Virus genome (UHGV): UHGV-1757948
DNA length: 20,276 nucleotides
From: a virus
Direction: 5' to 3' (one strand)
The notes beneath the pieces were generated by a model. The model was given only the letters and a program-made list of their open reading frames with translations, searched no databases and was not told the DNA's origin. A program made the position numbers and the translations under genes. Every line of letters begins with the position of its first letter. The first letter of the stretch is position 1. Shown piece by piece: positions 1 to 15,113 of this stretch.

Positions 1-1
1 A

Positions 2-3000
2 GTAAGATATAATCAAGAAGAGCATCTTCTGTATGTCAGCAACTATACTTGTAAAGCCGATGATAGCATACTTTATGAAATAAGTGTGGATTTAACAGAC
101 ACCCTGACCGTGTCTCAATCCTCATTCAGAGCACAGCTCGATTCCATAAAAACAGAGATACTTACATCCCTGACTTATGGCATGCGTGGTGACATTTTAG
201 CACAATGCGCGAAGTATTTTCTGCGGAAAGACAGTCCGGACACAGCCTTGGATATTATAACATTCCTCAAAGGGCTGCTTGTGGGAGACGGAGACTACGG
301 CATAGATGCGGACGGTACCGCACGGCTGAAGAAACTTCTTGCCGACGAAGCCACAATGAAAACGCTGACCGTGACAGGAAGGGCACATTTCTTCGAGCTT
401 GTCATAGATGAGCTGAACAGCGTCGGAGGTCAACTGATACTGTCCGCTGCTAACTGCACGGTACGCTCTGTCGAAAGAATAAGCGGAGCATGGCGTCTGT
501 GGTGGCTGGCGGAGGACAGCGACGGCAGAGCCGTGCAGAACATGTGGAAGGTCGGAGACCAGGCTCTGGCAATGACATCCAATCTTGCCGAGGGGACATC
601 ATATGATGCAGGAAACAGACTATGGTGGAGACTTGTCACGGCAACAGGGAGCGGAACACGGAACATTGACGGTGAGGACAGAAAGTGCCATTGGATTGAA
701 GTGTCTGAAGCCACGTGCGCGGCTGACAGCCTTGAGCCTGCAGAGGGTGACAGCGTTTGTCTGTGCGGACACCGTGGTGACGACACAGCGCGCAGCCATG
801 CGATAATAATAGCCGCCCACTCCACTCCGGATACCGAGCTGGAGAGTCCGTCATTCGCGCAATACAACGGAATCACAAGTTTTTCTCTAAGCCAGTACCG
901 CACGACATGGTTCGCGGCTAACGGCAATAAGATAAGAGGCGAGCTGGATGTGGACACTTCCGGTCTTGTCAGCTACACGCACCTTGCATGGGGAAACGGT
1001 CCGGACGACTGGACAAAGGACAAATCCCAGAGCACGGCAAAAGACTGGCTCATGCTCGGCATATGCACAGACCGCACGGAGAGCGACGTGGCTCTCGTCT
1101 ACAGCGACTATGCATGGTCAAGGATTAAAGGTACTGACGGAAAGACCACATACTTCCATGTGAAATATTCTTCAAACGAGAACGGAAATCCCATGACAGA
1201 GACGCCCAACCTCTACATCGGCACATACGTTGACTTCACTGAGGCAGACAGCAACGACCCCTCGGACTACACGTGGTCACGCTTCCAAGGATATGACGGG
1301 GAGCAGGGGATACCGGGGAAAAACGGTACGGACGGAAAGACAAGCTACCTTCACATCAAATATTCCGACGACGGGGGAAAGACGTTCACCGCCAGCAACG
1401 GTGAGACACCGGGTGCGTGGCTCGGGCAATGCGTAGACTTCAACTCATATGACCCGACAAGCGTTACCTCATATAAGTGGACACGGATACGCGGTGAGGA
1501 CGGAGCGGACGGAAGTGACGGTGAACCCGGCACGGACGGGCAGGACGGATTCTCGTGGGCACTTGACCCTGCCGCCATAACATTGGAGGCTGACAGTGAC
1601 GGTGTGGTGAGCATGCAGGATGCGACATCACGTCTGCGCGCATGGCTCGGCACGCGCGAGATGACTGTCACCATTACCGCCATAGAGCCAGTGCACTGTC
1701 TTGCGTCACGCAACGGGGCGCAGGTTACAATAACCGCAATAGGGACATATACGGCAGACTGGGGAGGTTCGGTGCCGTACGGAGCGGGATGGGTGCAGAT
1801 TACGGCACAGGCAACACTGGGAGGAGAGACCCGCAGTGTGAGCTGCCGCCTGTCCTTCACTGTATCGTCCATGGCACTCTCATCGCAGATTAAGGCTGAG
1901 ACGGACAGCATAAGCCTTAAAGTCGGCTATCTTGGGGCAAAGGACGGAAACATGGTGACCACTCCTGACATATTCCTGACAGGGAACGGGAACAAGACAT
2001 ACACAATCGGGGACATGTCAAGCCTGCGCGGAAAGACAATAACGGTATCATGCCTTGTCAAGACCGTATCCGCGGTTCCGGCGGCATCTGGCAACAGACG
2101 TATCGGCATGGAGCCCATGGTACGGTATGCCGACGGCAGCACGCAGTATCTCGGAACATGGAGGCAGATAACATCCACGGACACGTTCGAGGGACGCATA
2201 AGCTCCACACACAGGATACAGGATAAGGCTGTGGCGTCGGTAGAACAGTGTAACCTGTATATACAGGGCATATCATCAGGATACTCGTCCGTATCGCGTC
2301 CAAAGATAGAGACAGGTGCGGACGCGACAGACTGGGGACTCAGCGCGGAGGACAGGCTTAAAAGACCGAATCTTCTTCCAGGAACATCGGACTTCAGCCA
2401 ATGCACCGTACAGGATACCGTAGAGGCAGGAGCATACACGACACCTTACGGAGAAAAAATAAGCGTGGCACACGGTGTGAACGAAGCCGGGACATCATAC
2501 AAGGACGTCATCACATGGCGCAACGTGGTGCCCGAGCCGGGCGTACAGTATACGCTCTCATTCTGGGCGCGCGGCACAGGCAGCATCGGCTCGTACTTCT
2601 ATCCGAACTGCACCGACTGGGTCACAAGTCCGGGGACGAAGAACCAGACAGGTGTGACAGACGGATTCGTACAGTTCACGCTTGAAAGCGGATGGAACCG
2701 CTACCAGGTGACATGGAGCACACGCAACGATGTAAGCGGAGCGAAAAGTCTCATAGCGGCACGGCTCATGCCGGACAGTTCTGCACAGGGAGAGATCTGG
2801 ATATGCGGAGTGAAGCTGGAGAAAGGCAGCGAGGCGACAGACTGGCGTTCGGAGACAATCACGCACGACGAGCTGCAGGCGACAGGAATAGACATTGAGC
2901 ACAAGCGCATAAAGGTCACTGCCGACAACTTCGAGATACAGAACAACTCAGGCGAGACTGTCACCACTGTCGACGAGGCGGGCACCCTTACAGGTGTGAT

Positions 3001-3778
3001 GCTCCGCACTATGGACGAAGGACAGGGGCATGTGGAGATAAAGGGAGGACTGATTGAGGTAAAGAACCCTAACGGTGTGACCAACATCAAAATGGGATAT
3101 AACGGCTCATACATGGTACTGTCATATTATGACAATGACGGTACGTTCCTTTATGACCTCGGACCGTGGGGACTGTCCGGCAAGGATGTCTCGGAAGAAC
3201 GGTGGGAGACCAGCAGCAAATACGGACGCCTGCAGCTGACAGGGACCACATTCTCCACCGTAGGCGACATCGTTGGCAACAAACAGATAATGAACACCAT
3301 ATTCCAATATGGTCATGTGTACACGAAAACACCTTTGTACATGTATCTTGCAGGGCGCGTAAACGACACATATCTCAGCGGTGACTACGCCTCCACTCCG
3401 GAGATTGCAAGAGCCGCGAACGGCAGATGGTTCATGGAGCAGGGTAATGTGACCACGGCACAGGCTGTCACAGGAATGTGGGCGCAGGACAATCCGGAAT
3501 CGTTCATGATAGGCTCGCCTATGGACACACCGCCAATGGACTATACGCGATATGAAGATGACTATGCGGAAAAGGTGGATTTCTCCAGACAATGGTGCTC
3601 GCGCAATGTGTACAGATTCTCGAACATCGGAATCGTACAACCGGGAAGCGGCACCGTATACTACGGCAGCATGATAACGACAACAGCCGTATACATGAAT
3701 TATGACAGGGTGCAGATGATACAGATTAATCGCATTGACGATGATGACACGGACACGAACGGAAACATATATTTATGA
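2..3778 (+). CDS. Phage tail fibre / host-specificity protein with collagen-like Gly-X-Y runs, three ~55-aa tandem repeats and a C-terminal carbohydrate-binding-like domain; likely 5'-partial (first in-frame start is GTG at 86)
   Basis: The frame is open from position 2 to the stop at 3776-3778; the ORF track reports 86..3778 (1230 aa). Gly-X-Y runs (GEQGIPGKNGTDGKT; GEDGADGSDGEPGTDGQDG) are present. Three tandem repeats of the type SY.H.KYS..G...T...GETPG....DF.....DY.W.RI.G.DG resemble host-specificity proteins of Gram-positive phages. The C-terminal segment (YTLSFWARG...GWNRYQVTW...IWICGVKLEKGSEATDW) looks like a beta-sandwich CBM. Confidence 0.8.
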   Translation, partial: VRYNQEEHLLYVSNYTCKADDSILYEISVDLTDTLTVSQSSFRAQLDSIKTEILTSLTYGMRGDILAQCAKYFLRKDSPDTALDIITFLKGLLVGDGDYGIDADGTARLKKLLADEATMKTLTVTGRAHFFELVIDELNSVGGQLILSAANCTVRSVERISGAWRLWWLAEDSDGRAVQNMWKVGDQALAMTSNLAEGTSYDAGNRLWWRLVTATGSGTRNIDGEDRKCHWIEVSEATCAADSLEPAEGDSVCLCGHRGDDTARSHAIIIAAHSTPDTELESPSFAQYNGITSFSLSQYRTTWFAANGNKIRGELDVDTSGLVSYTHLAWGNGPDDWTKDKSQSTAKDWLMLGICTDRTESDVALVYSDYAWSRIKGTDGKTTYFHVKYSSNENGNPMTETPNLYIGTYVDFTEADSNDPSDYTWSRFQGYDGEQGIPGKNGTDGKTSYLHIKYSDDGGKTFTASNGETPGAWLGQCVDFNSYDPTSVTSYKWTRIRGEDGADGSDGEPGTDGQDGFSWALDPAAITLEADSDGVVSMQDATSRLRAWLGTREMTVTITAIEPVHCLASRNGAQVTITAIGTYTADWGGSVPYGAGWVQITAQATLGGETRSVSCRLSFTVSSMALSSQIKAETDSISLKVGYLGAKDGNMVTTPDIFLTGNGNKTYTIGDMSSLRGKTITVSCLVKTVSAVPAASGNRRIGMEPMVRYADGSTQYLGTWRQITSTDTFEGRISSTHRIQDKAVASVEQCNLYIQGISSGYSSVSRPKIETGADATDWGLSAEDRLKRPNLLPGTSDFSQCTVQDTVEAGAYTTPYGEKISVAHGVNEAGTSYKDVITWRNVVPEPGVQYTLSFWARGTGSIGSYFYPNCTDWVTSPGTKNQTGVTDGFVQFTLESGWNRYQVTWSTRNDVSGAKSLIAARLMPDSSAQGEIWICGVKLEKGSEATDWRSETITHDELQATGIDIEHKRIKVTADNFEIQNNSGETVTTVDEAGTLTGVMLRTMDEGQGHVEIKGGLIEVKNPNGVTNIKMGYNGSYMVLSYYDNDGTFLYDLGPWGLSGKDVSEERWETSSKYGRLQLTGTTFSTVGDIVGNKQIMNTIFQYGHVYTKTPLYMYLAGRVNDTYLSGDYASTPEIARAANGRWFMEQGNVTTAQAVTGMWAQDNPESFMIGSPMDTPPMDYTRYEDDYAEKVDFSRQWCSRNVYRFSNIGIVQPGSGTVYYGSMITTTAVYMNYDRVQMIQINRIDDDDTDTNGNIYL

Positions 3779-4578: not shown

Positions 4579-4580
4579 TT

Positions 4581-5315
4581 ATGTCAGAAAAAATTAGCCA
4601 AATTCAGATTAACGCCGACGTCAGAGATATAGAAGACGCGCAGGCATTACACAAAGGTGATAGTTTAGGCACAATAAATGGACAGTCTTTTAATGAAGGT
4701 AATGACTTAAACATTGAAGTTGGTACCAATGATTACAATGCCCTTAAAAACAAGCCACAAATAAACGGACATGAGTTGTCTGGGAATAAATCAGCAAAAG
4801 ATTTAGGCTTACAAGAAGCAGGTGACTATGTAACTCCCGAAGATATACCCGATGTGAGCGAACTGGCAACAAAGACAGAATTGGCAGAAGGACTGGAAGG
4901 CAAGCAGCCAAAGGGTGATTATGCCACAAAGGCAGAAATACCAGATGTGAGTGGATTTATTACCTCTTCACAAGCGGAAGAAAAATATCAGCCGAAAGGA
5001 ACTTATGTCACCACGACTGAACTATCTAAAAAGGCAGATAAAATCGCAACCGAAAATGTAGCCGAAACTACAAAGGAATTGCAACCGAACAAGTATTACA
5101 TATTTGGCGAAGTTGCCACACTTACCATAACTCTTGCAGCAGGAGAAGAAAATGTCCTTGCTGAATACATGTTTGAGTTTACAAGCGGCACAACTCCAAC
5201 AATATTGTCACTGCCCGAGGACGTTAAATGGATAGGTGAAAGCACGATTGAGGCAAGCAAGACATATCAAGTGAGCATCGTCAATAATATAGCAGTCATG
5301 GGAGGTGCAGCATGA
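4581..5315 (+). CDS. Phage tail-fibre repeat protein
   Basis: The ATG at 4581 lies just after the stop of the preceding gene. The protein has repeated YxPKGDYVT..IPDVS motifs (E.YQPKGDY / KQPKGDYATKAEIPDVS / KYQPKGTYVTTTEL) shared with the C-terminus of the preceding protein. The coding sequence is AT-rich. Confidence 0.6.
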   Translation: MSEKISQIQINADVRDIEDAQALHKGDSLGTINGQSFNEGNDLNIEVGTNDYNALKNKPQINGHELSGNKSAKDLGLQEAGDYVTPEDIPDVSELATKTELAEGLEGKQPKGDYATKAEIPDVSGFITSSQAEEKYQPKGTYVTTTELSKKADKIATENVAETTKELQPNKYYIFGEVATLTITLAAGEENVLAEYMFEFTSGTTPTILSLPEDVKWIGESTIEASKTYQVSIVNNIAVMGGAA

Positions 5316-6001
5316 GCATATACAGACGCAGGCTTATGATAGCCAACACACTTAAAAAGAGTGACAGCAACATAAATTATCCTGGACTTATTGCAGCATG
5401 GTCGGCAGCAGGAAAGAGCAATGACGATGCTGATAGAAACGTGTTGCACGATTTGACGGGTAATGGGCTTGACATTACGCTGAACGGCTTTGCGTTCAAT
5501 ACAGAAGGAAGTGGCTATGGACATCCCGAATACCCCGATGCTCTTGTCTTTGACGGAGTGGATGATTACGGTATTAATGAGGAAATGCCGATATTGACTG
5601 ATTATACGGTTATTGTTAAGAGAGAAATATTTAGTGGCGGATTATATTCTCATGTAATCGGAAAACGTACAGGCTCTATACCGGGAGCTTTTTGGTTTGA
5701 AAGAGGTAAAGGAGATACTCATAGCTTTGGAATGGCTAATTCAATCAATATATTAAATGAAAGTATATCTTGGCAGTCCACGACAAGCTATAACGGGACA
5801 CCTATAGAAAAAGGTGAAGCTGAGGATATTCATGAATTAACGATAGGTGTAGCAAGCAAAACATATCCAGATTTTAGGGGTATGGCTTTCTACTCCGCCT
5901 ACCTCTTTGACCGCTCATTGGGTGAGCAGGAGATAAAGTCATTTATTAGAAAGTATATAGACGCAGACTATCTGTTACCGAGTGAACAAACAACAGAATA
6001 A
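5312..6001 (+). CDS. Putative receptor-binding protein with a concanavalin-A/LamG-like lectin fold
   Basis: The ATG overlaps the upstream stop (ATGA) and is preceded by GGAGG. The beta-rich composition and the pattern (LVFDGVDDYG...TVIVKRE...GAFWFERGKGDTHSFGM...TIGVASKTYPDFRGMAFYSAYLFDRSL) are typical of jelly-roll lectin domains at the distal end of tail fibres. This assignment is inferred from composition and pattern only. Confidence 0.45.
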   Translation: MSIYRRRLMIANTLKKSDSNINYPGLIAAWSAAGKSNDDADRNVLHDLTGNGLDITLNGFAFNTEGSGYGHPEYPDALVFDGVDDYGINEEMPILTDYTVIVKREIFSGGLYSHVIGKRTGSIPGAFWFERGKGDTHSFGMANSINILNESISWQSTTSYNGTPIEKGEAEDIHELTIGVASKTYPDFRGMAFYSAYLFDRSLGEQEIKSFIRKYIDADYLLPSEQTTE

Positions 6002-6006
6002 AGAAT

Positions 6007-6663
6007 ATGAGATTTATTATAGCAACAATAGCACAAGCAAAGGCGCACGGAATTGAGATTATATCGACAATGCGCCAATCAGTGGATAAGACACAAGTAG
6101 TGTTCCACGAAGAATATGTAAAGAACATTGACGAATTTAATGCCTTAAAGAGGTATGAATTTGATGATGCTGAATTTACAGACCTTATGGCAAGTGAAGC
6201 ATGGACACACGGAGAAGATTATGTGCAGCCAAATGAGGACTTTGCAAAGGTATTAGCCATGCAGATATTGACAGCAGACACAAAGGCGCAGATAAACACC
6301 ATGTCGCTGTCTAACAACGAGGCTCTGAAAGTTAAGGAGTTTTATCCCGAATGGAAAGAAGGAATTGACGTCAACAAAGGCGAAAAGTACAACTGTGACG
6401 ATGACCTTTGGGAAGCACTTACAACGCATAAGACGCAGGCGAATTGGCGTCCGTCTTTGGAAACCGCATCTATATGGAAACATATTGACGAGGAACATGA
6501 GGGCACAGAGGACGACCCGATACCATACGCACCGCCTATGGAGTTGTTCAACGGTAAATATTACACGCAAGACGAGGTAAAATACAGGTGTACCCGTGAC
6601 AGCGGAATACCTTTGTCACAGAACCTGAGTGAACTTGTGGGATTATATGTGGAACTTGTTTAA
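6007..6663 (+). CDS. Hypothetical protein (acidic, tail-fibre-associated; function unknown)
   Basis: A 218-aa ORF with coding-like composition, on the same strand and in the same AT-rich cassette as the preceding tail genes. Confidence 0.5.
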   Translation: MRFIIATIAQAKAHGIEIISTMRQSVDKTQVVFHEEYVKNIDEFNALKRYEFDDAEFTDLMASEAWTHGEDYVQPNEDFAKVLAMQILTADTKAQINTMSLSNNEALKVKEFYPEWKEGIDVNKGEKYNCDDDLWEALTTHKTQANWRPSLETASIWKHIDEEHEGTEDDPIPYAPPMELFNGKYYTQDEVKYRCTRDSGIPLSQNLSELVGLYVELV

Positions 6664-6680
6664 TTTAAAAACCAAAGACT

Positions 6681-6944
6681 ATGAAGGAAAAAGTTATCAG
6701 ATTCGTGACAAACAGATGGTTCGGCTTCGTGGCAGGACTGGTAATCGCAATGCTGTACATGTGGCAGGAACAGAGCCTCGGCAGCGTCAACGCGTGGATA
6801 ATGGGAATCATCACACCTATGCTCTTCGGAGCGTTCGCCGAGGTGGTGAGACATGTCACCACGGAGGACACGTACAAGTGGAAGAACCTGCTGTGGTGGC
6901 TCGCGGGAGCTGTCATTGGAGTAGTGGCGATGCTTGTGGTTTGA
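6681..6944 (+). CDS. Holin-like small membrane protein (3 predicted TM segments)
   Basis: An 87-aa protein with three hydrophobic stretches (WFGFVAGLVIAMLYMW; AWIMGIITPMLFGAFA; LLWWLAGAVIGVVAMLVV) and charged termini. It lies immediately upstream of a second small membrane protein and the amidase. Confidence 0.5.
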   Translation: MKEKVIRFVTNRWFGFVAGLVIAMLYMWQEQSLGSVNAWIMGIITPMLFGAFAEVVRHVTTEDTYKWKNLLWWLAGAVIGVVAMLVV

Positions 6945-6956
6945 TTCCCGGCATCC

Positions 6957-6983
6957 AGGGCAGGGACTCATATGCCCTGCCCT
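6957..6983 (+). promoter_or_regulatory. GC-rich hairpin (9-bp stem AGGGCAGGG/CCCTGCCCT, 9-nt loop) between the two holin-like genes
   Basis: The inverted repeat is seen directly in the sequence. There is no clean U-tract downstream, so it may be an attenuator or processing element rather than an intrinsic terminator. Confidence 0.3.
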
Positions 6984-7026
6984 ATCATTTGACTTGATGT
7001 ATGTACGAATAAAAAAACAAGGGAGA

Positions 7027-7260
7027 ATGAACAAGATTATAATGTGGTTTAAGACAAGCAACCGATGGAAGCATCTGCTTGGCGGTCTGATTATCGGTAT
7101 GGGAGCGGATGATATATACTGTGCGGCATACGCAGGCATAGGCGTTGCGGCAGCCCTTGAACTGAAAGACAGGCAATGGGGCGGCAAATGGGACTGGACA
7201 GACTTCGGGCTGACAACAGCCGGAACAGTTGTGGGACAATGCATAAGGATGATGATATGA
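7027..7260 (+). CDS. Small membrane protein (second holin/antiholin candidate)
   Basis: The start is placed at MNKIIMWFK, which has a partial SD (aAGGGAGaATG); the track ORF begins at 6934 but has no RBS. Two hydrophobic segments are present (LLGGLIIGMGA; IYCAAYAGIGVAAAL). The stop overlaps the next start (ATGA). Confidence 0.45.
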   Translation: MNKIIMWFKTSNRWKHLLGGLIIGMGADDIYCAAYAGIGVAAALELKDRQWGGKWDWTDFGLTTAGTVVGQCIRMMI

Positions 7261-7865
7261 ACGAGGTACAAAGCACATTGGAGGTCGCAAAAGGCATAAG
7301 CGACTATGGGATAATGATAGTCATCTGCGCGGTGTTCCTGCTGCTCGCCTCAGGTCTGATGATTGCGTGTTTCCGCTGGTTCAAATCAGCGATAAGCAAC
7401 ATAATATCCTACACTGACGAGCTGCGCGAGCTTAACGGAAAGCTGGAAAACAACAACCACGTCATGGTGACGATAGCGGAGGGACTGATGCCTGAGACAC
7501 AACTGCGGATAAAGAACATATCCGGAGCGTTCTTTGACCTTGCGGTGGAGAAAGTATGCAGACTCCTGAAGAAAATAAGGGAGGAGAACCATATAGCCGA
7601 CAAGGAAAGGACAAAGGCTAAGATACGCACCCTGCTGAGCAACATGTATGAGGACAGGAACAGCAAGTTCGACAATTTCCATTACCGTGGGAAAAAGCTC
7701 TCGGAGTACTGCAATCCGGAATGGACAGAATGGGTGGCGAAAGTAATAGAGGGAGAGCTGTACAATGAGAACGGTGCGAACAACGGAAGAGCCTACACCA
7801 ACGTCAGCGCAGTATATGACAATATAAAATTGGACTTTTATCACAGAATGACAGACCAGATATGA
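7257..7865 (+). CDS. Signal-anchored (single N-terminal TM) protein of the lysis cassette; function unknown
   Basis: The start ATG at 7257 overlaps the upstream stop (ATGA), whereas the track start at 7176 overlaps the previous gene by 85 nt. There is one TM segment (IMIVICAVFLLLASGLMIACF) followed by a soluble, charged, helical domain. Confidence 0.5.
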   Translation: MNEVQSTLEVAKGISDYGIMIVICAVFLLLASGLMIACFRWFKSAISNIISYTDELRELNGKLENNNHVMVTIAEGLMPETQLRIKNISGAFFDLAVEKVCRLLKKIREENHIADKERTKAKIRTLLSNMYEDRNSKFDNFHYRGKKLSEYCNPEWTEWVAKVIEGELYNENGANNGRAYTNVSAVYDNIKLDFYHRMTDQI

Positions 7866-7895
7866 CGATAAACGCATTTTACAACATTATAAATC

Positions 7896-8489
7896 ATGGA
7901 AAAGTTTAAAGTTATACTTGATGCGGGACACGGAAGGGACACCGCAGGGAAACGTTCGCCTGACGGACGCCTGCTCGAATACGCATACGCCCGTGAGATT
8001 GCAGTGCGTCTTGAAAGGGAACTCAAGGCACGTGGATATGACGCGCAGCGCATTGTGCCCGAGGAAAACGACATCTGCCTGAAAGAGCGGTGCGAAAGGG
8101 CAAACAGAATTTATGCCGCGACAGGAAAGAAAGCGATACTTGTCTCAATACACTGTAACGCGGCTGGTGCCGACGGCAAATGGCATGACGCCAGAGGATG
8201 GTCGGCTTATGTCTCGCGCAACGCTTCAAAGAAGAGCAAAGAGCTCGCCTGCCGTCTGATTGACGCGGCAGAGACACAAGGACTGAAAGTCCGAAGATAC
8301 TCACAGGATGAGCCATATTGGACACAGAATCTCGCAATATGCCGTGACACAAATTGTCCCGCAGTCCTGACTGAAAACCTTTTTCAGGACAACCGGGAGG
8401 ACGTGGACTATCTGCTGAGCGAGAAAGGCAAGCGAACCATTGTGGAGCTGCACGTGGAAGGCATCATGGCGTACTTGGGGAAAGTGTGA
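7896..8489 (+). CDS. N-acetylmuramoyl-L-alanine amidase (Amidase_3/CwlA-type endolysin)
   Basis: It carries the diagnostic Amidase_3 motifs: ILDAGHG.DTAGKRS, E..YA..IA, SIHCNAAG and LTENLFQDN.ED.DYL. It follows the holin-like genes. Confidence 0.85.
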   Translation: MEKFKVILDAGHGRDTAGKRSPDGRLLEYAYAREIAVRLERELKARGYDAQRIVPEENDICLKERCERANRIYAATGKKAILVSIHCNAAGADGKWHDARGWSAYVSRNASKKSKELACRLIDAAETQGLKVRRYSQDEPYWTQNLAICRDTNCPAVLTENLFQDNREDVDYLLSEKGKRTIVELHVEGIMAYLGKV

Positions 8490-8515
8490 GCTCGTTTCCA
8501 AAATGGAAATAACTG

Positions 8516-8544
8516 ACGACAGTTGCAAATTCCGCAACCGTCGT
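8516..8544 (+). terminator. Imperfect hairpin downstream of the amidase gene (possible terminator without a U-tract)
   Basis: ACGACAGTTGC-aaattcc-GCAACCGTCGT forms an 11-bp stem with one mismatch, ~25 nt after the amidase stop. No T-run follows, so the assignment is weak. Confidence 0.25.
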
Positions 8545-8647
8545 AAAGGCGTTCTTTGACATTGTGGGTTGCCGTTAAAAATACAATATTTTCGAAAAAT
8601 TATATACAATTATTTTGGGAAATTATATATCTTTGCACAATATAAGA

Positions 8648-8669
8648 AGCCCTTACGGCAATAAGGGCT
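8648..8669 (+). promoter_or_regulatory. Hairpin AGCCCTTA-cggcaa-TAAGGGCT immediately 5' of the ATG at 8673, inside an AT-rich 180-bp intergenic region
   Basis: A perfect 8-bp inverted repeat ends 3 nt before the start codon and would occlude the translation-initiation region. The surrounding region (8490-8672) is AT-rich and promoter-like (TATATACAAT, TATCTTTG). Confidence 0.3.
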
Positions 8670-8672
8670 GAA

Positions 8673-9302
8673 ATGACAGACGGTGTGCCCGTCTTAAATT
8701 TAAATTATATGGCAAAGATAAATAATAATTTTGAGAAACGAAAACGCATCACGAAAAATGAAGCGTTGGAACTGCTAAAAGATTGTTATGAGGACATCTT
8801 CAAGGCGTATTACGCAGGTCTGGAAAATTACAATGAAGAAATAAATATGACCATACCTGAAGCAAGGACAAGGCTTGTAGGTCCTTTGCTTAACGCAAAA
8901 ATAACAGAGAGTTTCATTCTCACATTTCCCGAGAACTGGAACAAAGGCAAATACGGAAGGATAATATTCAGATGGAACGGTGTGCTCATGCTCATCAAGA
9001 AATTGAACAAGAATGACAAGCCGTCTTACATTCCGACAATACTTTCAGATTCGATTGTCAACCAATACCAATTACCGCTTTTCCAAGGCGATGAAGGCAA
9101 GGAAGAGCCGATATTGATTTTCGGATATACAAAGGACGGTTTCGGGCAGCTCGTAAACCCGAGAATTGTCTTGTATGACGATGGGGTTCAATGGACTGCC
9201 TATATGGAAGACGGTGTAAATATGCCGACTGCCAATACAGACACGCAGGAGATTATTGTCCGCCTGAAAAAGAAAGAGACAGGAGAAAAGAAGGCAGAAT
9301 AA
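8673..9302 (+). CDS. Hypothetical protein (209 aa, low GC, no SD; alternative start at M13 = 8709); unknown partner of the HTH-ImmA regulator
   Basis: A long ORF with coding-like composition on the same strand as, and 52 nt upstream of, the HTH-ImmA gene. No recognisable motif was found. Confidence 0.5.
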   Translation: MTDGVPVLNLNYMAKINNNFEKRKRITKNEALELLKDCYEDIFKAYYAGLENYNEEINMTIPEARTRLVGPLLNAKITESFILTFPENWNKGKYGRIIFRWNGVLMLIKKLNKNDKPSYIPTILSDSIVNQYQLPLFQGDEGKEEPILIFGYTKDGFGQLVNPRIVLYDDGVQWTAYMEDGVNMPTANTDTQEIIVRLKKKETGEKKAE

Positions 9303-9354
9303 CAGCAGGGCACACCGTCTGTTTTCAACAAACGACCTATAAAAGCAACGTCTT

Positions 9355-10410
9355 ATGAAATGTGAGCAGCTAACATTCGCAAGGGAATACAGGGGATTTA
9401 CGCAAACCGCACTCGCGGCAAAAGTCAAAGGGCTATCGCAATCCAACCTGTCAAAATATGAAAAGGGGTTTGGCGGGCTGTCAGACAACATGCTTAGTTT
9501 GATTATGTCCACGCTTGATTTTCCGATGAAATTCCTTGACATGAATATTGTGAACAAGGTTGACAGCAAGCATTACAGGAAAAAGGCAACCATAACCGTA
9601 AAGACACGCAACGAGATAGACAGGACAATATCCCTGATTGCGTATTGTTTTGATTGGCTTAGTGAATTTGTCGAGATACCTGACTATTCATTTGGATACT
9701 ACGACATGGACAACGGCATAAGCCCGGAGGAACTTGCCGGGCACATAAGGAACAAATACAGGCTCGGCATGTCGCCTATATCCGATATTTGCAATTTCCT
9801 TGAGCGCAATGGGGTATTCATTTACATGTGGGACAGTCCTAACGACGAGTTTGACGGGGTATCCCTGATAACTGACGCAGGCAATCATCTTATCATTGTG
9901 AACAGGAACAGAAGCAACGACAGGGTAAGGTTTACGCTTGCACATGAGCTGGGACACATACTGATGCACGAGTGCCCAAGTTTCCCGGTATTCAGCATTA
10001 GAGACAAGGAGAAAGAGGCGAACGCTTTTGCATCAGAGTTCCTTCTCCCCTCCCAGGCTGTCAGAAACGCCTTGCACAATGTCAGGCTCGGACAGTTCCC
10101 TGAGCTGAAACGGTATTGGCTTGTTTCCATGGCATCACTTTTGGAAAAGGCAAAAAACATAAACGCCATTGCAAGTGAGAAGTACAAGTCTATGAGAATG
10201 GAGTTCAGCAGACGCCATTGGAATAAGAAAGAACCTTACGAAGTGCCTATTGACAGCCCTACCGTCTTTGAGCAGGCATATAGGCTGGTATCGGACACAT
10301 TGGGGTATTCAATCAGCATGATTTCGGAAAGCACAGGCTTGCCCGAGGATGTCTTGATAAAGATATTCGGCAAATCTGCGAGGATAATATCATTAAAGCC
10401 ACTAATATAA
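9355..10410 (+). CDS. XRE-family HTH fused to an ImmA/IrrE-family (COG2856) zinc metallopeptidase
   Basis: The N-terminus has an HTH_XRE signature (FTQTALAAKVKGLSQSNLSKYEKG). The central region has the HEXXH zinc motif in ImmA-like context (FTLAHELGHILMHE). Confidence 0.85.
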   Translation: MKCEQLTFAREYRGFTQTALAAKVKGLSQSNLSKYEKGFGGLSDNMLSLIMSTLDFPMKFLDMNIVNKVDSKHYRKKATITVKTRNEIDRTISLIAYCFDWLSEFVEIPDYSFGYYDMDNGISPEELAGHIRNKYRLGMSPISDICNFLERNGVFIYMWDSPNDEFDGVSLITDAGNHLIIVNRNRSNDRVRFTLAHELGHILMHECPSFPVFSIRDKEKEANAFASEFLLPSQAVRNALHNVRLGQFPELKRYWLVSMASLLEKAKNINAIASEKYKSMRMEFSRRHWNKKEPYEVPIDSPTVFEQAYRLVSDTLGYSISMISESTGLPEDVLIKIFGKSARIISLKPLI

Positions 10411-10436
10411 CAATTATCTATTTTGATACAACACAG

Positions 10437-10472
10437 GCGGTGACCCACATATCAAGGGTTGCCGCTTTTTGT
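10437..10472 (+). terminator. Rho-independent terminator after the HTH-ImmA gene
   Basis: GCGGTGACCC-acatatcaa-GGGTTGCCGC gives a 10-bp stem (two G·U pairs) followed by TTTTTGTTT. Confidence 0.5.
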
Positions 10473-10492
10473 TTAATAAAAAATGAAAGAAC

Positions 10493-11002
10493 ATGGGAAG
10501 ATTTAAAGGATTGCTTGTGGTAGTATCGGTGTTGTTGACCGCATCATTATGCGTCAACATACTCCAGTGCAGTAATGCCGGAAAGAAAACAACGAATCAG
10601 GACACAGTACGGACTACATATATAGACACCATTCCGTTCTTGAATCCTGTACCCAAAGACAGTACGGTGATACGGTATGTTACGGAGACGTTGCCCGTGA
10701 CTTGCCGCAAAGACACGATATACGAAGAGAAGGGCGGGAATACAGGCGACAGCGTCAAGGTGACACTGCCTATAACTTCCAAAGTCTATAAGGACAGTAC
10801 CTATACCGCATACGTGAGCGGATTCCGCGCGAATCTTGACAGTATATTTGTATATCCGAGACACGAGACTGTAACTGTCACAAGGTACAAGGAAAGTCCG
10901 CGCCTTGGCGTCGGTATTGCCGCAGGTTACGGTATAGGGAAAGACATGAAACCGACACCTTTCATAGGAATATCCGTATATTATAGGCTTTGGCAGTGGT
11001 AG
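10493..11002 (+). CDS. Secreted lipoprotein (signal peptide with lipobox LTASLC); candidate superinfection-exclusion or surface protein
   Basis: The N-terminus (MGRFKGLLVVVSVLLTASLC) fits a signal peptide plus L-[AS]-[GAS]-C lipobox. The mature part is Y/T/K-rich and beta-like. The overlapping antisense ORF 10547..11137 is Cys/Arg-rich junk. Confidence 0.55.
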   Translation: MGRFKGLLVVVSVLLTASLCVNILQCSNAGKKTTNQDTVRTTYIDTIPFLNPVPKDSTVIRYVTETLPVTCRKDTIYEEKGGNTGDSVKVTLPITSKVYKDSTYTAYVSGFRANLDSIFVYPRHETVTVTRYKESPRLGVGIAAGYGIGKDMKPTPFIGISVYYRLWQW

Positions 11003-11004
11003 TA

Positions 11005-11208
11005 TCAGCCATCTGGGAACAGTCTTTCGTAGAACTCTCCCTGCCGTCGCACCAAAGCTTCCCCATAGTCCAACCCGTAAACATCGGCATCGTGCCTTGC
11101 TATGCGTCGCACACGAGCCTGTGCCGAGCGCGGACAATGTATGGCAATCAGATGCTCTGCCTCGGCAAACAGACGGGCGGAGTATTCATCATTTGGCATC
11201 TGTGTCAT
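11005..11208 (-). CDS. Hypothetical protein (67 aa), last gene of the minus-strand operon
   Basis: A strong SD (aAAGGAGGaatctgATG) precedes the start at 11208. Its stop lies 2 nt from the stop of the convergent lipoprotein gene. Confidence 0.45.
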   Translation of the reverse strand: MTQMPNDEYSARLFAEAEHLIAIHCPRSAQARVRRIARHDADVYGLDYGEALVRRQGEFYERLFPDG

Positions 11209-11599
11209 CAGATTCCTCCTTTTCTGAGTTTATAGATACGAACAATCTCTCGTAGTCATCACAACTGATTTCAAAGCAGTTCTGACTTATTACTCCGTCA
11301 GAATCCCCGAAAACGTAAAACGGGGTATACGGACTGTATGTCTTCAGGACACCCACATCCTTTTTGTTGTCCTGCCTGTGTCTGATATAGAACCAGTAAT
11401 GAGGTCTTTTGTAACCGACACACCATAGCAGCATAAGGACAAACAACAAGAAGAAAAAACAGAAAAACCATTTCGGCAGGAAAACGTCAATCAGAAAGAA
11501 TGTAACCCATGCCGTTACCATTACGGCGAAAGCCTCAAAAGATGTCTTGTAATCAAAATTTTTCATTTTCATAATATGTTTAATATTTCTTATTCCCAT
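11189..11599 (-). CDS. Small membrane protein (2 TM); alternative start at MKMKNFD (11572)
   Basis: Two hydrophobic helices (AFAVMVTAWVTFFLIDVF; FFCFFFLLFVLMLLWCVGY) and an acidic C-terminus. The coding sequence is AT-rich and overlaps the neighbouring genes at both ends. Confidence 0.45.
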   Translation of the reverse strand: MGIRNIKHIMKMKNFDYKTSFEAFAVMVTAWVTFFLIDVFLPKWFFCFFFLLFVLMLLWCVGYKRPHYWFYIRHRQDNKKDVGVLKTYSPYTPFYVFGDSDGVISQNCFEISCDDYERLFVSINSEKEESDDTDAK

Positions 11600-12134
11600 G
11601 CTTAAATGGGCGGAGTCTGTTATAGCGCATCTTCTGCTCGACGTAGAAGTCGATGTCGATATCGTTTTGGTGGCAGAATAAGATAATGAGGGCTACAGTG
11701 AGATTGATTTTTTCGCAAAGGGCTTCCTTATATAAACAAAGTCCCTCACAAAGATGGTACATGACGACGGGGAATGGCTCATTAATGAATTTTGCGTCTG
11801 AAGCAAGAAACTCGTCAACGTAATGCAGGGATATTCCGCGCAGTGCAGCCAAGTCCAAACAGCGTATGATGATGTCGCTAAGTTCATCCTCAACCGAGTT
11901 TTTGACGTGTGTCTCAAATTCATACTTAAATACAACGTCGTCATCGGCGTATGTTCCAAGTAATGCTTTGAAAAGGTCAATGTCCGTGTGCCTGTCCTTG
12001 CGGTCTGCCTGTACAGCTTCAGATATCTCAGTAATGATAAGCATCAAATAAGTTTCGTCAGGCAGTTCTTCATCGTGCCATCCGTGCGTCTTTGCGGTCT
12101 CAAAAACTGCTTTTGATAATTTAGTCAAATCCAT
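11580..12134 (-). CDS. Hypothetical protein, tentatively MazG-like all-alpha NTP pyrophosphohydrolase
   Basis: It has MazG/dimeric-dUTPase-like acidic helix motifs (ITEISEAVQADRKD ... ELSDIIIRCLDLAALRGISL). The assignment is pattern-based only. Confidence 0.35.
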   Translation of the reverse strand: MDLTKLSKAVFETAKTHGWHDEELPDETYLMLIITEISEAVQADRKDRHTDIDLFKALLGTYADDDVVFKYEFETHVKNSVEDELSDIIIRCLDLAALRGISLHYVDEFLASDAKFINEPFPVVMYHLCEGLCLYKEALCEKINLTVALIILFCHQNDIDIDFYVEQKMRYNRLRPFKHGNKKY

Positions 12135-12187
12135 ACTACTTATATTTTATTTTTAGGCATTTAATGCTTAGTGTTAATATCTGTATA

Positions 12188-12934
12188 TCACTGCGACGCG
12201 CACTCGCTTTCAAGCTCGTTCCAATCCTCGTCGGTAATGTATTTGCGGCATTCAGGATTAAGCTTCAACGCCTCATAGCCGACACGGTTGAGGAAACGCT
12301 CGCTCGTCAGCTTCTTCTCTATGATACGGAAGGCGAGCATGGCGTTGGCGTCCTTGTTCAGGTCTATGGTTATCCCGTCCTCGGTCTTGCATATCATGTC
12401 CGCAGCCTGCTCAAAATGGTAGAGGGTGCGTGACAGCCGCGCAGGATTCATGTATTTGTCAAAATGAATGCCGGGCGCGGCTTCGTCAGCCGTCTTTATC
12501 TGCACATCGTAAAGATGTACCGCGTATGCCAGAAGATTGCGGGCGGTCTCGACATAGGACTTAAGCTCCGTTTCGGTCTGCCTGTACTTGTCGAGCAGCG
12601 ACTTTATGGAGAAGCGCAGGATGTCGACATGCGGCTGTATGTCCTCCTCCACTGTGTCAAGATAGTCATAGAAGAGCTGCGTGCGGTCTCCGAAGTTCTG
12701 GATGTGAAGCTTCTCGTAGGCGTAGTACGCCCTCTCCGCTTCCCTGATGTGACGCTTCAGAGTGAAACGGTAGTACGGTGTCTTCCGTACTCTCTCTATG
12801 GCGTCGAACATTGTCTTGCCCGCCACTGTGTTGGCGGCTCCTATAACAAGGTTGACGAGTGAGTTGAGACGCTCGAACACCTCCATCGCGCGCTGGCTGC
12901 TCACTGCCGTAGCCTGTCGTACGTATGCTGTCAT
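12188..12934 (-). CDS. Hypothetical protein (248 aa)
   Basis: A perfect SD (aAAGGAGGtcagcaATG) precedes the start at 12934. It is GC-rich (~55%). No recognisable domain was found. Confidence 0.55.
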   Translation of the reverse strand: MTAYVRQATAVSSQRAMEVFERLNSLVNLVIGAANTVAGKTMFDAIERVRKTPYYRFTLKRHIREAERAYYAYEKLHIQNFGDRTQLFYDYLDTVEEDIQPHVDILRFSIKSLLDKYRQTETELKSYVETARNLLAYAVHLYDVQIKTADEAAPGIHFDKYMNPARLSRTLYHFEQAADMICKTEDGITIDLNKDANAMLAFRIIEKKLTSERFLNRVGYEALKLNPECRKYITDEDWNELESECASQ

Positions 12935-13191
12935 TGCTGACCTCCTTTCTTCAAATCATTCAAAGCCTTGTCATTGCAGCTTTTACAAAACAATTTATTG
13001 AGAGTTCCTTTTAGCATGACTAAATAGACATCATCGTCATCCTTGAACTTGCGGTTGCAATTAAAACAAAGCCTTTGAACATAAAGCCCTATACTTTCTC
13101 TCGACTTGCGGAACTGCCAGAATTTCAAGAATGGCTTATCAACAGCGTTTAGTACCTCGTATTCACGTTTGGTGATTTTCACTACTTTCAT
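12931..13191 (-). CDS. Small zinc-ribbon protein (CxxC...CxxC)
   Basis: An SD (gAAAGGAGGtataaaATG) is present and the stop overlaps the downstream gene start. It has CFNC and CKSC pairs. Confidence 0.5.
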   Translation of the reverse strand: MKVVKITKREYEVLNAVDKPFLKFWQFRKSRESIGLYVQRLCFNCNRKFKDDDDVYLVMLKGTLNKLFCKSCNDKALNDLKKGGQQ

Positions 13192-13562
13192 TTTATACCT
13201 CCTTTCAGTAGCTCTGGGTTGTCGTGGATGTTGCCGATTATCGTTGCTTTATCGGTAGGAAGGAAGCCTAATCTTTCAATACCTCCGATAAAAGAGCATT
13301 CAGAATCACTATATTCCACATCCACAATATCTCCGTCTGGAAATTGAATAATATCCCCTTCGTAAATCTCCTTCCCCTTTTTATCATACAAGCCTGTGAA
13401 CTGGCTTACGGTGGAGGGGGCGATTTCTCGTTTCCACACGGCATTAGAGCTGTCGCTCTTTTCGAGAATGTTGCAGTCTCCGTCCGCCCATATTAAAAGC
13501 GAACCATAGCACCACTCATCGTTTGCAAGGCGTTTGCCTCTGAACTTGATTGCTCGTTTCAT
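13188..13562 (-). CDS. YopX-family phage protein
   Basis: MKRAIKFRGKR...WCYG...VSQFTGLYDKKGKEIYEGDII...IIGNIHDNPELL matches the YopX (SPbeta) family pattern. An SD (gAAAGGAGGtgcggtcATG) is present. Confidence 0.7.
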   Translation of the reverse strand: MKRAIKFRGKRLANDEWCYGSLLIWADGDCNILEKSDSSNAVWKREIAPSTVSQFTGLYDKKGKEIYEGDIIQFPDGDIVDVEYSDSECSFIGGIERLGFLPTDKATIIGNIHDNPELLKGGIK

Positions 13563-13870
13563 GACCGCACCTCCTTTCCGTCGGACAGAAGGTCGTCAAG
13601 ATAGGCGAACTTGTCAACCTCTCCCCATAATCGTTCAAACGACAGGTCGCGCAGGTCTTTGTAGACAGCGGCATTCCCGTTCTTGAATAAGACGAGTGTC
13701 TTGCGCTTAGGTTGGCAAGATACAGTGCCGTTGTGCCACACGGCGTTGATGCGCCAGTTGGCACCATCTATAAACCCATGTTCATAATACGGCACGTATT
13801 TTGGATTGAAGATGCTGTTGTCAATAACACAACTTTCTGTTGCCGCCTTTTCAATCTGTTCTCTTGTCAT
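13559..13870 (-). CDS. Hypothetical protein (103 aa)
   Basis: An ORF in the operon whose stop overlaps the YopX gene start by 4 nt. Confidence 0.5.
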   Translation of the reverse strand: MTREQIEKAATESCVIDNSIFNPKYVPYYEHGFIDGANWRINAVWHNGTVSCQPKRKTLVLFKNGNAAVYKDLRDLSFERLWGEVDKFAYLDDLLSDGKEVRS

Positions 13871-13903
13871 ATCTTATTTGTATTAATATTCTTTCCCTCC
13901 ATT

Positions 13904-14068
13904 TTATCTTGTGATTTTAGAGGAAATTTTCCTTGTATTTCCTTTGTTTTCCTTTGCCAAACACTCATTGCCACATCTTCTGCCCACGTCGTACTTATCG
14001 CACCATCCGTCTCCGTAGAAGCCTTCGTTAATGAAGTGGATACATGAGCCGCAGTGTCTTGCTTTCAT
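13904..14068 (-). CDS. Small Cys-rich zinc-ribbon-like protein (54 aa), translationally coupled to the PP-loop enzyme gene
   Basis: The translation is MKARHCGSCIHFINEGFYGDGWCDKYDVGRRCGNECLAKENKGNTRKISSKITR. Its ATG overlaps the upstream stop as ATGA at 14065-14068. It is absent from the 60-aa ORF track. Confidence 0.35.
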   Translation of the reverse strand: MKARHCGSCIHFINEGFYGDGWCDKYDVGRRCGNECLAKENKGNTRKISSKITR

Positions 14069-15107: not shown

Positions 15108-15113
15108 CGTTCA

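Follow-up and report, generated by a model that had tools for sequence, protein, structure and literature searches.

Here we describe a segment at positions 8581..10470 of a 20,276-nucleotide virus sequence (UHGV-1757948; the whole stretch analysed is called the window) that is probably a self-contained, horizontally mobile two-gene toxin-antitoxin (TA) or abortive-infection cassette of the RosmerTA type. The assignment is supported by the architecture of its protein with a helix-turn-helix (HTH) and a peptidase, family membership, strict pairing with one partner gene, mobility, dispensability, operator conservation and RNA covariation. The locus joins a widespread defence/TA family, and its subfamily is unusually well constrained, with an operator pair, a nearly invariant recognition helix, an exposed linker, a co-inherited partner and a natural cassette-minus sibling phage as control. 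If confirmed, the main addition would be a set of RNA features, namely a terminator hairpin specific to one strand, a promoter box for the antisense RNA kept at synonymous sites and a covarying pairing between the toxin leader and the intergenic spacer. These would show how a toxin-first RosmerTA operon silences its toxin, and they would add an RNA layer to a system that has been treated as purely protein-based.

The RmrA-like HTH-peptidase

The rmrA-like gene (9355..10410, plus strand) encodes a protein of 351 aa with an N-terminal XRE HTH (Pfam HTH_3, residues 10-59; 9382-9531) and an ImmA/IrrE domain (Pfam Peptidase_M78, residues 169-265; 9859-10149). The zinc-peptidase motif HELGH at residues 197-201 (9943-9957) is intact, and a conserved helical domain spans residues ~245-340 at the C-terminus. 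A reading of this DNA from the letters alone (hereafter the sequence-only reading) had placed both modules in one chain, and the domain assignments bear this out. The linker at residues 63-81 is exposed and conserved (pLDDT 58-73); it contains the motif KHYRKKA (residues 72-78; 9568-9588), in which R75 is invariant. Across 39 homologues the protease signature HEXXH...E..A..FA...L.P is also invariant, and the HTH recognition helix, GLSQSNLSK.EKG, is nearly so.

Fourteen PADLOC RmrA profiles match the protein over its full length (residues ~3-343; E 5e-59 to 2e-31), PHROG 2439 matches it at E 5e-75, and PADLOC PD-Lambda-2_B gives a weak match (E 1.9e-5). NCBIfam NF052239, the spr1629 family, aligns with residues 4-341 (110.8 bits, E 7.6e-32), below its equivalog cut-off of 335 bits. 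By these matches the protein is a spr1629 homologue of the same architecture, too distant in sequence to be called an equivalog. Judged on its profiles, it is an antitoxin and regulator of the RmrA family, which is known and common rather than a discovery in itself. A PDB sequence search returned nothing at E <= 0.01. By fold, CapP and IrrE are its nearest relatives, while for the HTH these are ImmR, DdrO and CapH, with further resemblance to the P22 C2 and 434 repressors. It is extremely improbable that the protein is a PrpR/RamB-type transcription factor that senses a ligand, its M78-like domain binding a metabolite instead of acting as a protease, since CapP and IrrE score higher in the fold comparison, the protease signature is complete and invariant, and the cassette is found in mobile, phage-borne settings where no metabolic genes are inherited along with it across the contexts examined.

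The sequence-only reading treated the fusion as a departure from the paradigm of separate repressor and peptidase, and as functionally uncharacterised. The literature contradicts both points. Over half of COG2856 domains occur as Xre fusions, and they are abundant in phages (Makarova et al. 2009, PMC2701414), while RosmerTA defence modules have been experimentally tested since 2022 (10.1101/2022.05.11.491447), with further characterised systems in Kita RmrTA (PMC10440598), PD-lambda-2 (PMC9519451) and RipAB/spr1629 (10.1101/2025.09.02.673660). RosmerTA combines a Zn-peptidase antitoxin with a toxin of unknown function, and an rmrA deletion was not transformable (Millman 2022 preprint, 10.1101/2022.05.11.491447). 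The ImmA/Rosmer antitoxin is a hub that pairs with many unrelated toxins, 58% toxin-first, and phage-encoded RmrTA protects against coliphages; the RmrT-RmrA complex of Gordonia phage Kita could not be predicted, and neither mechanism nor trigger is established in the RosmerTA papers cited here (PMC10440598). In S. pneumoniae RipAB, Spr1629 antagonises the Spr1630 toxin (10.1101/2025.09.02.673660).

The window locus resembles RosmerTA in its single-chain antitoxin, which joins an XRE HTH at the N-terminus to an ImmA/IrrE M78 Zn-peptidase, and in its toxin-first operon of two genes. The partner shows no relation to other toxins, a typical situation for a hub antitoxin. Like Kita RmrTA, it is a phage-carried cassette. 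It shares the M78 fold and an intact active site with ImmA/ImmR (ICEBs1), IrrE/DdrO (Deinococcus) and CapP/CapH (CBASS). Unlike in those three systems, the HTH is fused in cis, no separate XRE repressor lies adjacent, and regulation is predicted to act on the operon of the cassette itself, not on a damage regulon or one that spans the whole element.

The upstream partner gene

The gene directly upstream, a candidate RmrT-type toxin gene of a new family, occupies 8709..9302 on the plus strand and encodes 197 aa. The sequence-only reading had rightly recognised a gene here and had begun it at 8673; its true start is 8709. The family is small, with proteins of ~200 aa. The window member is a soluble protein made up of helices at the N-terminus, a beta-sheet and a disordered tail, rich in K/E, that ends in KKAE; unlike Kita RmrT it has no predicted membrane segment. 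No Pfam, PADLOC or PDB entry matched the family, and its fold matches nothing known. In particular, the PADLOC RmrT models match neither the window protein (E up to 0.01) nor 38 family members (E up to 1), which sets the partner apart from known RosmerTA. Since RmrT families are heterogeneous by definition, the absent match is better taken as a sign of a new toxin family than as grounds for exclusion from RosmerTA, and with neither a model match nor a known fold it is the context that points to toxicity. Nuclease-type names (NaeI, phage exonucleases) recur among the weak matches of the partner. A PD-(D/E)XK nuclease was considered and rejected, as TM-scores were ~0.2 and no invariant acidic catalytic residue was found across the family.

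The two genes are strictly paired. In 58/58 related loci, drawn from unrelated phages and Segatella copri chromosomes, the partner lies directly upstream of rmrA in the same direction. The module has two genes and not the three mentioned in the sequence-only reading. The identities of the two cassette genes also drop together (96/99, 89/87, 60/57, 54/53 and 42/45%). The pairing also extends to the two distant members that were checked, of which L067 is followed by a full 352-aa HTH-M78 gene and L066 by only a 74-residue fragment with the same HTH. The sequence-only reading had raised the possibility that homologues are always encoded with a separate HTH repressor as the true substrate; no second HTH repressor gene is conserved beside the homologue pairs, whose neighbours vary with every context.

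The roles of the two proteins could be reversed, given what is reported for PD-lambda-2, where the Xre-peptidase overexpressed alone is toxic and is rescued by the upstream component (Vassallo et al. 2022, PMC9519451). The HTH-peptidase would then be the toxic effector, for example a protease acting on host or phage proteins, and the 197-aa protein its inhibitor or sensor. As in PD-lambda-2, the Xre-peptidase fusion lies directly 3' of a small toxin-like gene; PD-lambda-2 itself has three genes, the first HigB-like and the third P4-antitoxin-like (PMC9519451), unlike the two found here, of which the first is unrelated. Strict purifying selection on the peptidase active site, the weak PD-Lambda-2_B match and the lack of a recognisable toxin fold or invariant acidic catalytic residues in the partner are consistent with such a reversal. 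We consider it unlikely, however, because the full-length RmrA matches (down to E 5e-59) are far stronger than that to PD-Lambda-2_B, and the HTH-peptidase is the antitoxin in RosmerTA, Kita RmrTA and RipAB (10.1101/2022.05.11.491447; PMC10440598; 10.1101/2025.09.02.673660). The elaborate RNA control proposed below would also be aimed at the leader of the upstream gene, as expected if that gene encodes the toxin.

Mobility and dispensability of the cassette

The partner-rmrA pair was found in at least five kinds of genomic context, among them S. copri glycosyltransferase genes, sites after a GH108 endolysin in other phages, an integrase-bearing element and Flavobacteriia. Copies of the cassette with 87-94% identity occur in backbones without the amidase or DUF6808 genes, and the S. 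copri copies sit in chromosomal polysaccharide loci. The locus is a documented case of movement of a defence-type cassette among phages and chromosomes of gut Prevotella/Segatella. A megablast of 6000-12500 against INPHARED phages gave no match, so there is no annotated relative for this part of the window.

A sibling phage, L025, lacks the 1,808-bp segment 8648..10455. By blastn, window 7000-8647 corresponds to L025 3300-4918 and window 10456-10866 to L025 4964-5374, both at ~90.5% identity. L025 retains p229 (98%), the amidase (94%) and DUF6808 (76%), and has no toxin or rmrA gene; both operators described below are still present, with the -7 box broken. Its lack of the segment identifies the cassette as dispensable cargo. 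The lipoprotein gene downstream of rmrA in the window is DUF6808, which adjoins the amidase in phages without the cassette; it belongs to the phage lysis backbone and is not a dedicated target. In this Prevotella/Segatella-type phage, the endolysin gene and the DUF6808 lysis gene flank the cassette, which is carried as optional cargo.

The rmrA gene is located where the rightward and leftward phage operons meet, a position that would suit a lysogeny switch. The protein would in that case act as an immunity repressor similar to CI that carries its own ImmA-type anti-repressor protease and controls prophage induction, much as ImmA/ImmR-type pairs control the induction of mobile elements (ICEBs1, summarised in PMC10440598), and its HTH does resemble those of ImmR, P22 C2 and the 434 repressor. 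This is nevertheless very improbable. The 90%-identical sibling phage has no rmrA gene, and the cassette also occurs in chromosomal polysaccharide loci and unrelated phage backbones. Element L021 has a separate CI/LexA-type gene (HTH_3 + Peptidase_S24) 3.5 kb from the cassette, and the operators are confined to the cassette's own promoter. On the cassette-minus sibling and the non-phage contexts, a role as phage immunity repressor was rejected.

Predicted operators and promoter of the toxin-rmrA operon

Two copies of an imperfect palindrome, ATACAAT-N11-ATTATAT, precede the operon and are candidate sites for the RmrA HTH. The distal operator, O1, lies at 8581..8605 and the proximal operator, O2, at 8604..8628, where its 3' half-site abuts the -7 promoter box of the operon (TATCTTTG; 8628..8635, plus strand). 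In a scan of the 20 kb window with the exact pattern, and on both strands with <=2 mismatches, O1 and O2 were the only matches, against 0.12 expected. The promoter box belongs to a TATAT(C/A)TTTG block that is invariant in 20 aligned leaders. Measured from the start of this block, O1 is found at -45 to -55 and O2 at -20 to -22 in 21/21 lineages, from Bacteroidia to Flavobacteriia. In Bacteroidota the -7 consensus is TAnnTTTG, and the box is of this type; a sigma-70 promoter scan was uninformative for such a promoter, and transcription is predicted to start at ~8642. Downstream of rmrA, an intrinsic terminator occupies 10437..10470 on the plus strand (10-bp stem GCGGTGACCC / GGGTTGCCGC, 9-nt loop, TTTTT; -20.8 kcal/mol, z = -4.68), which a consensus terminator scan missed because it was limited to loops of 3-8 nt.

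From the operator pair and its conservation in 21 lineages, binding of the RmrA-like protein to the 8490-8672 DNA is strongly predicted. Control of the neighbouring upstream gene by this protein is very probable, and the two genes form a TA-like module. To this extent the local DNA binding and control of neighbours anticipated in the sequence-only reading are supported. They do not extend to the 9303-9354 spacer, which has no operator and contains an RNA element instead, or to the DUF6808 lipoprotein gene, before which no operator was found.

These results also bear on the model proposed in that reading, a stand-alone, LexA-like XRE-M78 repressor that cleaves itself and derepresses neighbouring phage genes, the lipoprotein gene included, after DNA damage or superinfection, with the upstream gene as regulated cargo and no toxin involved. 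The HTH and the intact protease do share a single chain, the exposed and conserved linker 63-81 offers a possible site of cleavage, and the neighbourhood has no conserved second HTH gene. Self-cleavage has also been proposed by analogy (PMC2701414, PMC10440598), the comparison with LexA-like autoproteases having been drawn already by Makarova et al. 2009 (PMC2701414). In the protein itself Pfam detects no Peptidase_S24 Ser-Lys autoprotease domain, the protease domain being M78, and the resemblance to LexA or CI is an analogy only; self-cleavage and a DNA-damage trigger are pure conjecture. The stand-alone repressor appears quite unlikely, as the operators lie only before the first gene of the cassette, DUF6808 is lysis backbone that is present without the cassette, and the cassette also occupies non-phage chromosomal sites. 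The gene is inherited strictly together with one partner family and diverges in step with it, which points instead to a two-protein functional unit.

As a RosmerTA-type module, the cassette could work as follows. An XRE HTH dimer of RmrA would bind the two palindromic operators, which overlap its own promoter, and repress the operon, and the M78 zinc-peptidase together with the C-terminal helical domain would hold the RmrT-like 197-aa partner harmless. A signal from an infecting phage or from stress would then switch the peptidase, whose substrate may be RmrA itself, with the KHYRKKA linker that joins its HTH to the peptidase as a plausible site, or alternatively the partner. Cleavage would free the effector and derepress the operon. 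Toxicity, neutralisation, the trigger, proteolysis and phage defence, as well as expression of the antisense RNA considered next, are steps that we infer.

Predicted RNA elements in the toxin leader and spacer

Two hairpins lie around the toxin leader. The first, H1 (AGCCCTTA / CGGCAA / TAAGGGCT; 8648..8669, minus strand), is followed on the minus strand by a U-run, was flagged as terminator-like on that strand by a terminator scan, and is the putative intrinsic terminator of a putative antisense RNA. Of the cells in its 9 pairs, 96.6% are paired, with compensatory double changes in 7/9 pairs, and the covariation score was reached by 0/500 shuffles. Many cells are U.G and would be C.A mismatches if read on the plus strand. 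The second hairpin, H2 (AGACGG / TGTGC / CCGTCT; 8678..8694), is predicted on either strand for nearly all of the 20 leaders when each is folded alone (MFE), with 11 distinct arm pairs, and is poorly aligned by the covariance model (59-66% paired). A statistic comparing own-arm with cross-arm pairing is biased by the hairpin search and serves as a pointer only.

Together with a -7 box and a U-tract, the two hairpins outline the locus of a putative cis-antisense small RNA (8636..8720, minus strand). Its minus-strand -7 box lies at 8720-8713 (CAAAGATA on the plus strand), and the putative RNA of ~65 nt would start near 8706, end at the U-tract near 8640 and be complementary to the whole toxin 5' UTR. 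At this locus covariance model R1 reaches 66.9 bits (E 1.4e-8), and it matched 22 other loci. The minus strand of the leader region folds better in 15/20 loci (sum -430.8 vs -344.8 kcal/mol), and the fold of the antisense locus has z = -4.9. A minus-strand TAnnTTTG box (CAAANNTA) is present in 14/20 loci, against 2.09 expected from synonymous resampling, and is imperfect or absent in 6/20. Rfam gave no family within 8400-10600 at E <= 1. RNAalifold on MAFFT alignments of the leaders returned no structure, because the variable stems are misaligned by MAFFT; leader structure was instead assessed by single-sequence folds, the covariance model and pair counting.

The spacer between the two genes carries an element, GGGCACACCGTCTGT (9308..9322, plus strand), that is the reverse complement of leader positions 8676-8690. 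In the bicistronic mRNA, the 5' UTR (8676-8690) is predicted to pair over a long range with the intergenic region (9308-9322), and the pairing covaries between loci. Exact inverted matches measure 7-15 nt per locus (at least 9 nt in 15/20), and their sequence varies among lineages. Within a locus the RNAduplex energies are -23 to -38 kcal/mol, compared with cross-locus means of -12 to -20. The position of both arms is well conserved, with the spacer arm starting 2-7 nt past the toxin stop in 18/20 loci (outliers -1 and 16) and the leader arm ending 14-20 nt ahead of the toxin AUG in 19/20.

Such an antisense RNA, covering the whole toxin 5' UTR, would give extra control of the partner gene, and the pairing with the spacer would probably set the toxin:antitoxin translation ratio, which needs control because the toxin gene comes first. 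The hok/sok type I TA system uses an antisense RNA together with fold-back pairing of the toxin mRNA. In the window locus a short putative cis-antisense RNA would similarly cover the translation-initiation leader of the toxin, expressed from a promoter box of its own and ended by an intrinsic terminator, and a long-range pairing is predicted at the 5' leader of the toxin mRNA. Unlike in hok/sok, the antitoxin here is primarily a protein, and the distal pairing arm lies in the spacer before the antitoxin gene rather than at the mRNA 3' end. Neither the operator pair nor the antisense-RNA signature nor the leader-spacer pairing is described in the RosmerTA literature cited. We tentatively suggest, as a possibility that we hold with some doubt, that this RosmerTA subfamily of the Bacteroidota may combine type I and type II control in a hybrid module. 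A toxin with a new and unclassifiable fold would be restrained at three levels, by an autorepressing HTH-metallopeptidase antitoxin with two operators, by an antisense RNA of ~65 nt over the whole toxin 5' UTR, and by a covarying pairing of 5' UTR and spacer that couples or gates translation of both genes. Should the peptidase also cleave itself in the conserved KHYRKKA linker, sensing and effector functions would be united in one compact cassette under RNA as well as proteolytic control.

The inverted repeats at 8676-8690 and 9308-9322 were also considered as recombinase sites for phase-variable inversion of the toxin ORF. This was rejected because the orientation is the same in 58/58 loci, the repeats are not conserved between lineages, and the differences on the intergenic side are mostly G.U-compatible on the plus strand.

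A probable HTH-peptidase antitoxin with a new partner family

The gene rmrA (9355..10410, plus strand) has an ATG start and encodes a 351-aa protein, RmrA, in which Pfam places HTH_3 at residues 10-59 and Peptidase_M78 at residues 169-265 (E 7.9e-18), confirming the fused HTH and peptidase ORF of the sequence-only reading. In an alignment of 39 RmrA homologues (45-87% identity), H197, E198, and H201 of the HELGH motif are invariant, as are E219, E221, A222, F225, A226, E228, L230, and P232. The recognition helix of the HTH, GLSQSNLSK.EKG, is nearly invariant in this set, and the helical C-terminal domain is conserved. The AlphaFold2 model of RmrA is confident (pLDDT 88.8, pTM 0.87), with its lowest-confidence internal stretch at residues 63-81. 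Within this stretch, the linker between HTH and peptidase carries a KHYRKKA motif (residues 72-78, 9568-9588, plus strand) that is conserved among the 39 homologues, with R75 invariant. The linker is presumably exposed, and the motif may serve as a cleavage site, a pseudo-substrate, or an arm that contacts DNA.

A homology search returned 1,376 RmrA relatives. The best 120 of the 1,376 are approximately 325-375 aa and contain Peptidase_M78, except for one 266-aa fragment, and most also carry the HTH. The HTH-M78 fusion is thus a known and common arrangement, and its novelty had been overstated. Makarova et al. 2009 reported more than half of COG2856 domains as fused to Xre and abundant in phages, and already drew the LexA analogy for such fusions (PMC2701414).

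Along its full length RmrA aligns with 14 PADLOC RmrA profiles (best E 5e-59), and it also matches PHROG 2439, "transcriptional regulator" (E 5e-75); against the NCBIfam "spr1629 family repressor/antitoxin" model it scores 110.8 bits, below the cut-off of 335. RmrA is the antitoxin of RosmerTA, a group of phage-defence modules in which RmrT is the toxin. In the NetFlax study, the ImmA/Rosmer antitoxin is a hub with many unrelated toxins as partners (58% toxin-first), it frequently has an N-terminal HTH, and a phage-encoded RmrTA was validated as a defence system; an HTH-cleavage mechanism was suggested there (PMC10440598). The self-cleavage hypothesis of the sequence-only reading has also been proposed by others. 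Spr1630/Spr1629 (RipAB) also belongs to the Rosmer family, and the toxin of this pair targets DnaN (10.1101/2025.09.02.673660). The present locus is a new RosmerTA member with a new partner family.

The partner gene (8709..9302, plus strand) encodes a candidate toxin of 197 aa with no match in Pfam, NCBIfam, PHROGs, or PADLOC, and the PADLOC RmrT models match no member of its family. We found 124 homologues of approximately 195-199 aa in Bacteroides, Segatella, and Prevotella metagenomes, and an exhaustive profile search of 1.84 billion representatives gave just 117 partner-family clusters, all consisting of fragments or of ~200-aa proteins with one domain. The true start, by alignment of homologues, is ATG 8709 (MAKIN...); the ORF-finder start at ATG 8673 lies between two leader hairpins, is unconserved, and was rejected. 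The AlphaFold2 model (pLDDT 84, pTM 0.77) shows helices at the N terminus, a beta-sheet, and a tail that is disordered and K/E-rich; a structural-neighbour search with it gave no significant match. The tail (residues ~172-197, 9211-9302, plus strand) ends in a conserved KKAE, which could be a degron or a docking motif for a protease or the antitoxin.

In every context examined, the 197-aa gene lies directly 5' of a ~351-aa HTH-M78 gene, and the genes flanking the pair vary. These contexts include S. copri chromosomes, amid glycosyltransferase and sulfatase genes (L001-L006), another phage type, downstream of a GH108 endolysin (L007-L010), and the phage type of the window (L011-L014). RmrA homologues at just 46-51% identity, looked up independently, have a partner-family member upstream (hmmsearch E 1e-47 to 1e-82). 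After scans of genome and viral collections the pair was present in 58/58 loci, among them loci of Rasiella and Maribacter (Flavobacteriia), and partner and RmrA identities drop in parallel between loci. One of two very distant partner-family members precedes a full 352-aa HTH-M78 gene; downstream of the other is just a 74-residue fragment, the same HTH by sequence. No second HTH gene is conserved beside the pair across the contexts examined, leaving the separate repressor that might have been the true substrate without a candidate there. The sequence-only reading of RmrA as a repressor of adjacent genes was partly right: RmrA very probably serves as the regulator of a TA-like module that includes the upstream gene, but the lipoprotein (DUF6808) gene does not stand as a target. 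By analogy with PD-lambda-2, the roles within the pair could be reversed (PMC9519451).

In one chromosomal or island context (L015-L017, 1263-6013), the cassette of partner gene and rmrA sits between TatD_DNase and NTP_transf_5 genes on one side and a 74-aa gene and PIN_3 pair on the other. The latter is probably a second TA, and the surroundings resemble a defence island.

Candidate operators and cassette promoter

Every lineage compared has two copies of an imperfect palindrome, ATACAAT-N11-ATTATAT, 5' of the partner gene, at -45 to -55 and -20 to -22, counted from where an invariant TATAT(C/A)TTTG block starts. We take the last eight bases of this block, TAnnTTTG, to be the Bacteroidota -7 box; the proximal palindrome ends at, or a few bases from, it. 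The candidate operators (8581-8605 and 8604-8628) are the sole matches in the 20-kb window, vs 0.12 expected, and the earlier proposal of the 9303-9354 spacer as a protein-DNA target was wrong. Since the operators are conserved and the recognition helix is nearly invariant, the natural reading is that RmrA would repress its own operon through the two palindromes. Upstream lies a conserved non-coding block, TCTTTGACAT-N2-TGG-N5-CCG-N-AAAAA (8553-8580), common to many phage-borne copies and partly present in chromosomal ones.

The sibling phage L025 (IMGVR_UViG_3300045988_126137) keeps the TCTTTGACAT block and both palindromes (~4830-4965, corresponding to window 8553-8647), with the -7 box broken and both genes absent. 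Retained operators beside a broken -7 box suggest gene loss by deletion; the region looks like a deletion scar, and L025 serves as a natural negative control for the cassette.

Conserved RNA elements

Of everything at this locus, the conserved RNA features most merit follow-up. The partner-gene leader, ~67 nt, contains two predicted hairpins, H1 (8648-8669) and H2 (8678-8694), which recur at the same positions when 20 diverse leaders are folded one sequence at a time, although the stem sequences differ. The minus strand folds more stably in 15/20 loci (sum -430.8 vs -344.8 kcal/mol), and in the loci examined a U-run follows H1 on that strand, giving it the shape of an intrinsic terminator. When 23 loci are aligned with a covariance model, the nine pairs of H1 are 96.6% paired, with double compensatory changes in 7/9; many of its U.G cells would become C.A mismatches if read on the plus strand. 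None of 500 shuffles reached the observed H1 covariation score, and the whole structure is 83% paired vs 36-52% in slid controls. Finally, CAAANNTA, the reverse complement of TAnnTTTG, occurs in partner codons 2-4 in 14/20 loci, vs 2.09 expected from synonymous resampling; these are all the loci whose amino acids permit it.

Stability and terminator shape, covariation, and the promoter box within coding sequence point to H1 belonging to the minus strand. Together they predict a cis-antisense RNA of ~65 nt, running from ~8706 to ~8640 on the minus strand and complementary to the toxin 5' UTR over its whole length. Its putative signature (8636-8720, minus strand) comprises the TAnnTTTG box in codons 2-4, H2, the covarying H1, and the U-run. 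The fold has z = -4.9, and no Rfam family matches it.

The toxin-rmrA spacer begins with a 15-nt element (9308-9322) that matches the H2 region (8676-8690) in reverse complement. Complementarity is kept while the sequence changes between lineages, which disfavours a protein site or inversion site. Duplexes are -23 to -38 kcal/mol within a locus vs cross-locus means of -12 to -20, and the pairing keeps a fixed position with respect to the toxin stop in 18/20 loci and to the toxin start in 19/20. On the plus strand, G.U pairing accommodates most of the sequence differences. This covariation indicates a putative long-range pairing within the bicistronic mRNA, and we suggest a role for it in setting the toxin:antitoxin translation ratio or in competition with the antisense RNA for the leader. 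On its 3' side, rmrA is followed by a strong terminator (10437-10470, plus strand).

The cassette as optional phage cargo

The window phage segment has tail-fibre or host-specificity proteins (86..3778 and following), a PHROG 19698 protein, and an Amidase_3 endolysin (7896..8489) before the cassette. After it come a DUF6808 protein with an N-terminal hydrophobic signal-like segment (10493..11002, plus strand) and a leftward module (minus strand) of MazG-like pyrophosphatase, YopX, PAPS-reductase-like (14065-14982), radical-SAM-like (15257-16162, a weak match), and DUF7666 genes. The first four of these, at 11580-16162, may have nucleotide or DNA-modification functions.

L025 shares a 229-aa protein (98%), the amidase (94%), and DUF6808 (76%), and neither toxin nor rmrA was found in it. 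Nucleotide homology covers window 7000-8647 and resumes at 10456; therefore 8648..10455 is an indel. In more distant phages DUF6808 directly adjoins the amidase, as it does the Amidase_3 endolysin in several unrelated phages (L026-L031), and its product probably belongs to the lysis module instead of being a regulator target. Cassette copies at 87-94% identity occur in backbones without these flanks, and among genomes the closest match came from an uncultured Prevotella MAG. The phage carries the cassette as optional cargo.

A 9-bp direct repeat, GGGTTGCCG, is present on both sides of the cassette (8567-8575 and 10456-10464). The right copy forms the 3' arm of the rmrA terminator, exactly at the L025 indel boundary, and the repeat could be chance or a recombination junction. 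GC content is 0.55-0.56 across the 1230-aa tail-fibre/host-specificity gene (86-3778) vs 0.40-0.41 in the following genes. This compositional shift is sharp (window 1-3500 vs 4500-6500) and suggests that the host-recognition module is of mosaic origin.
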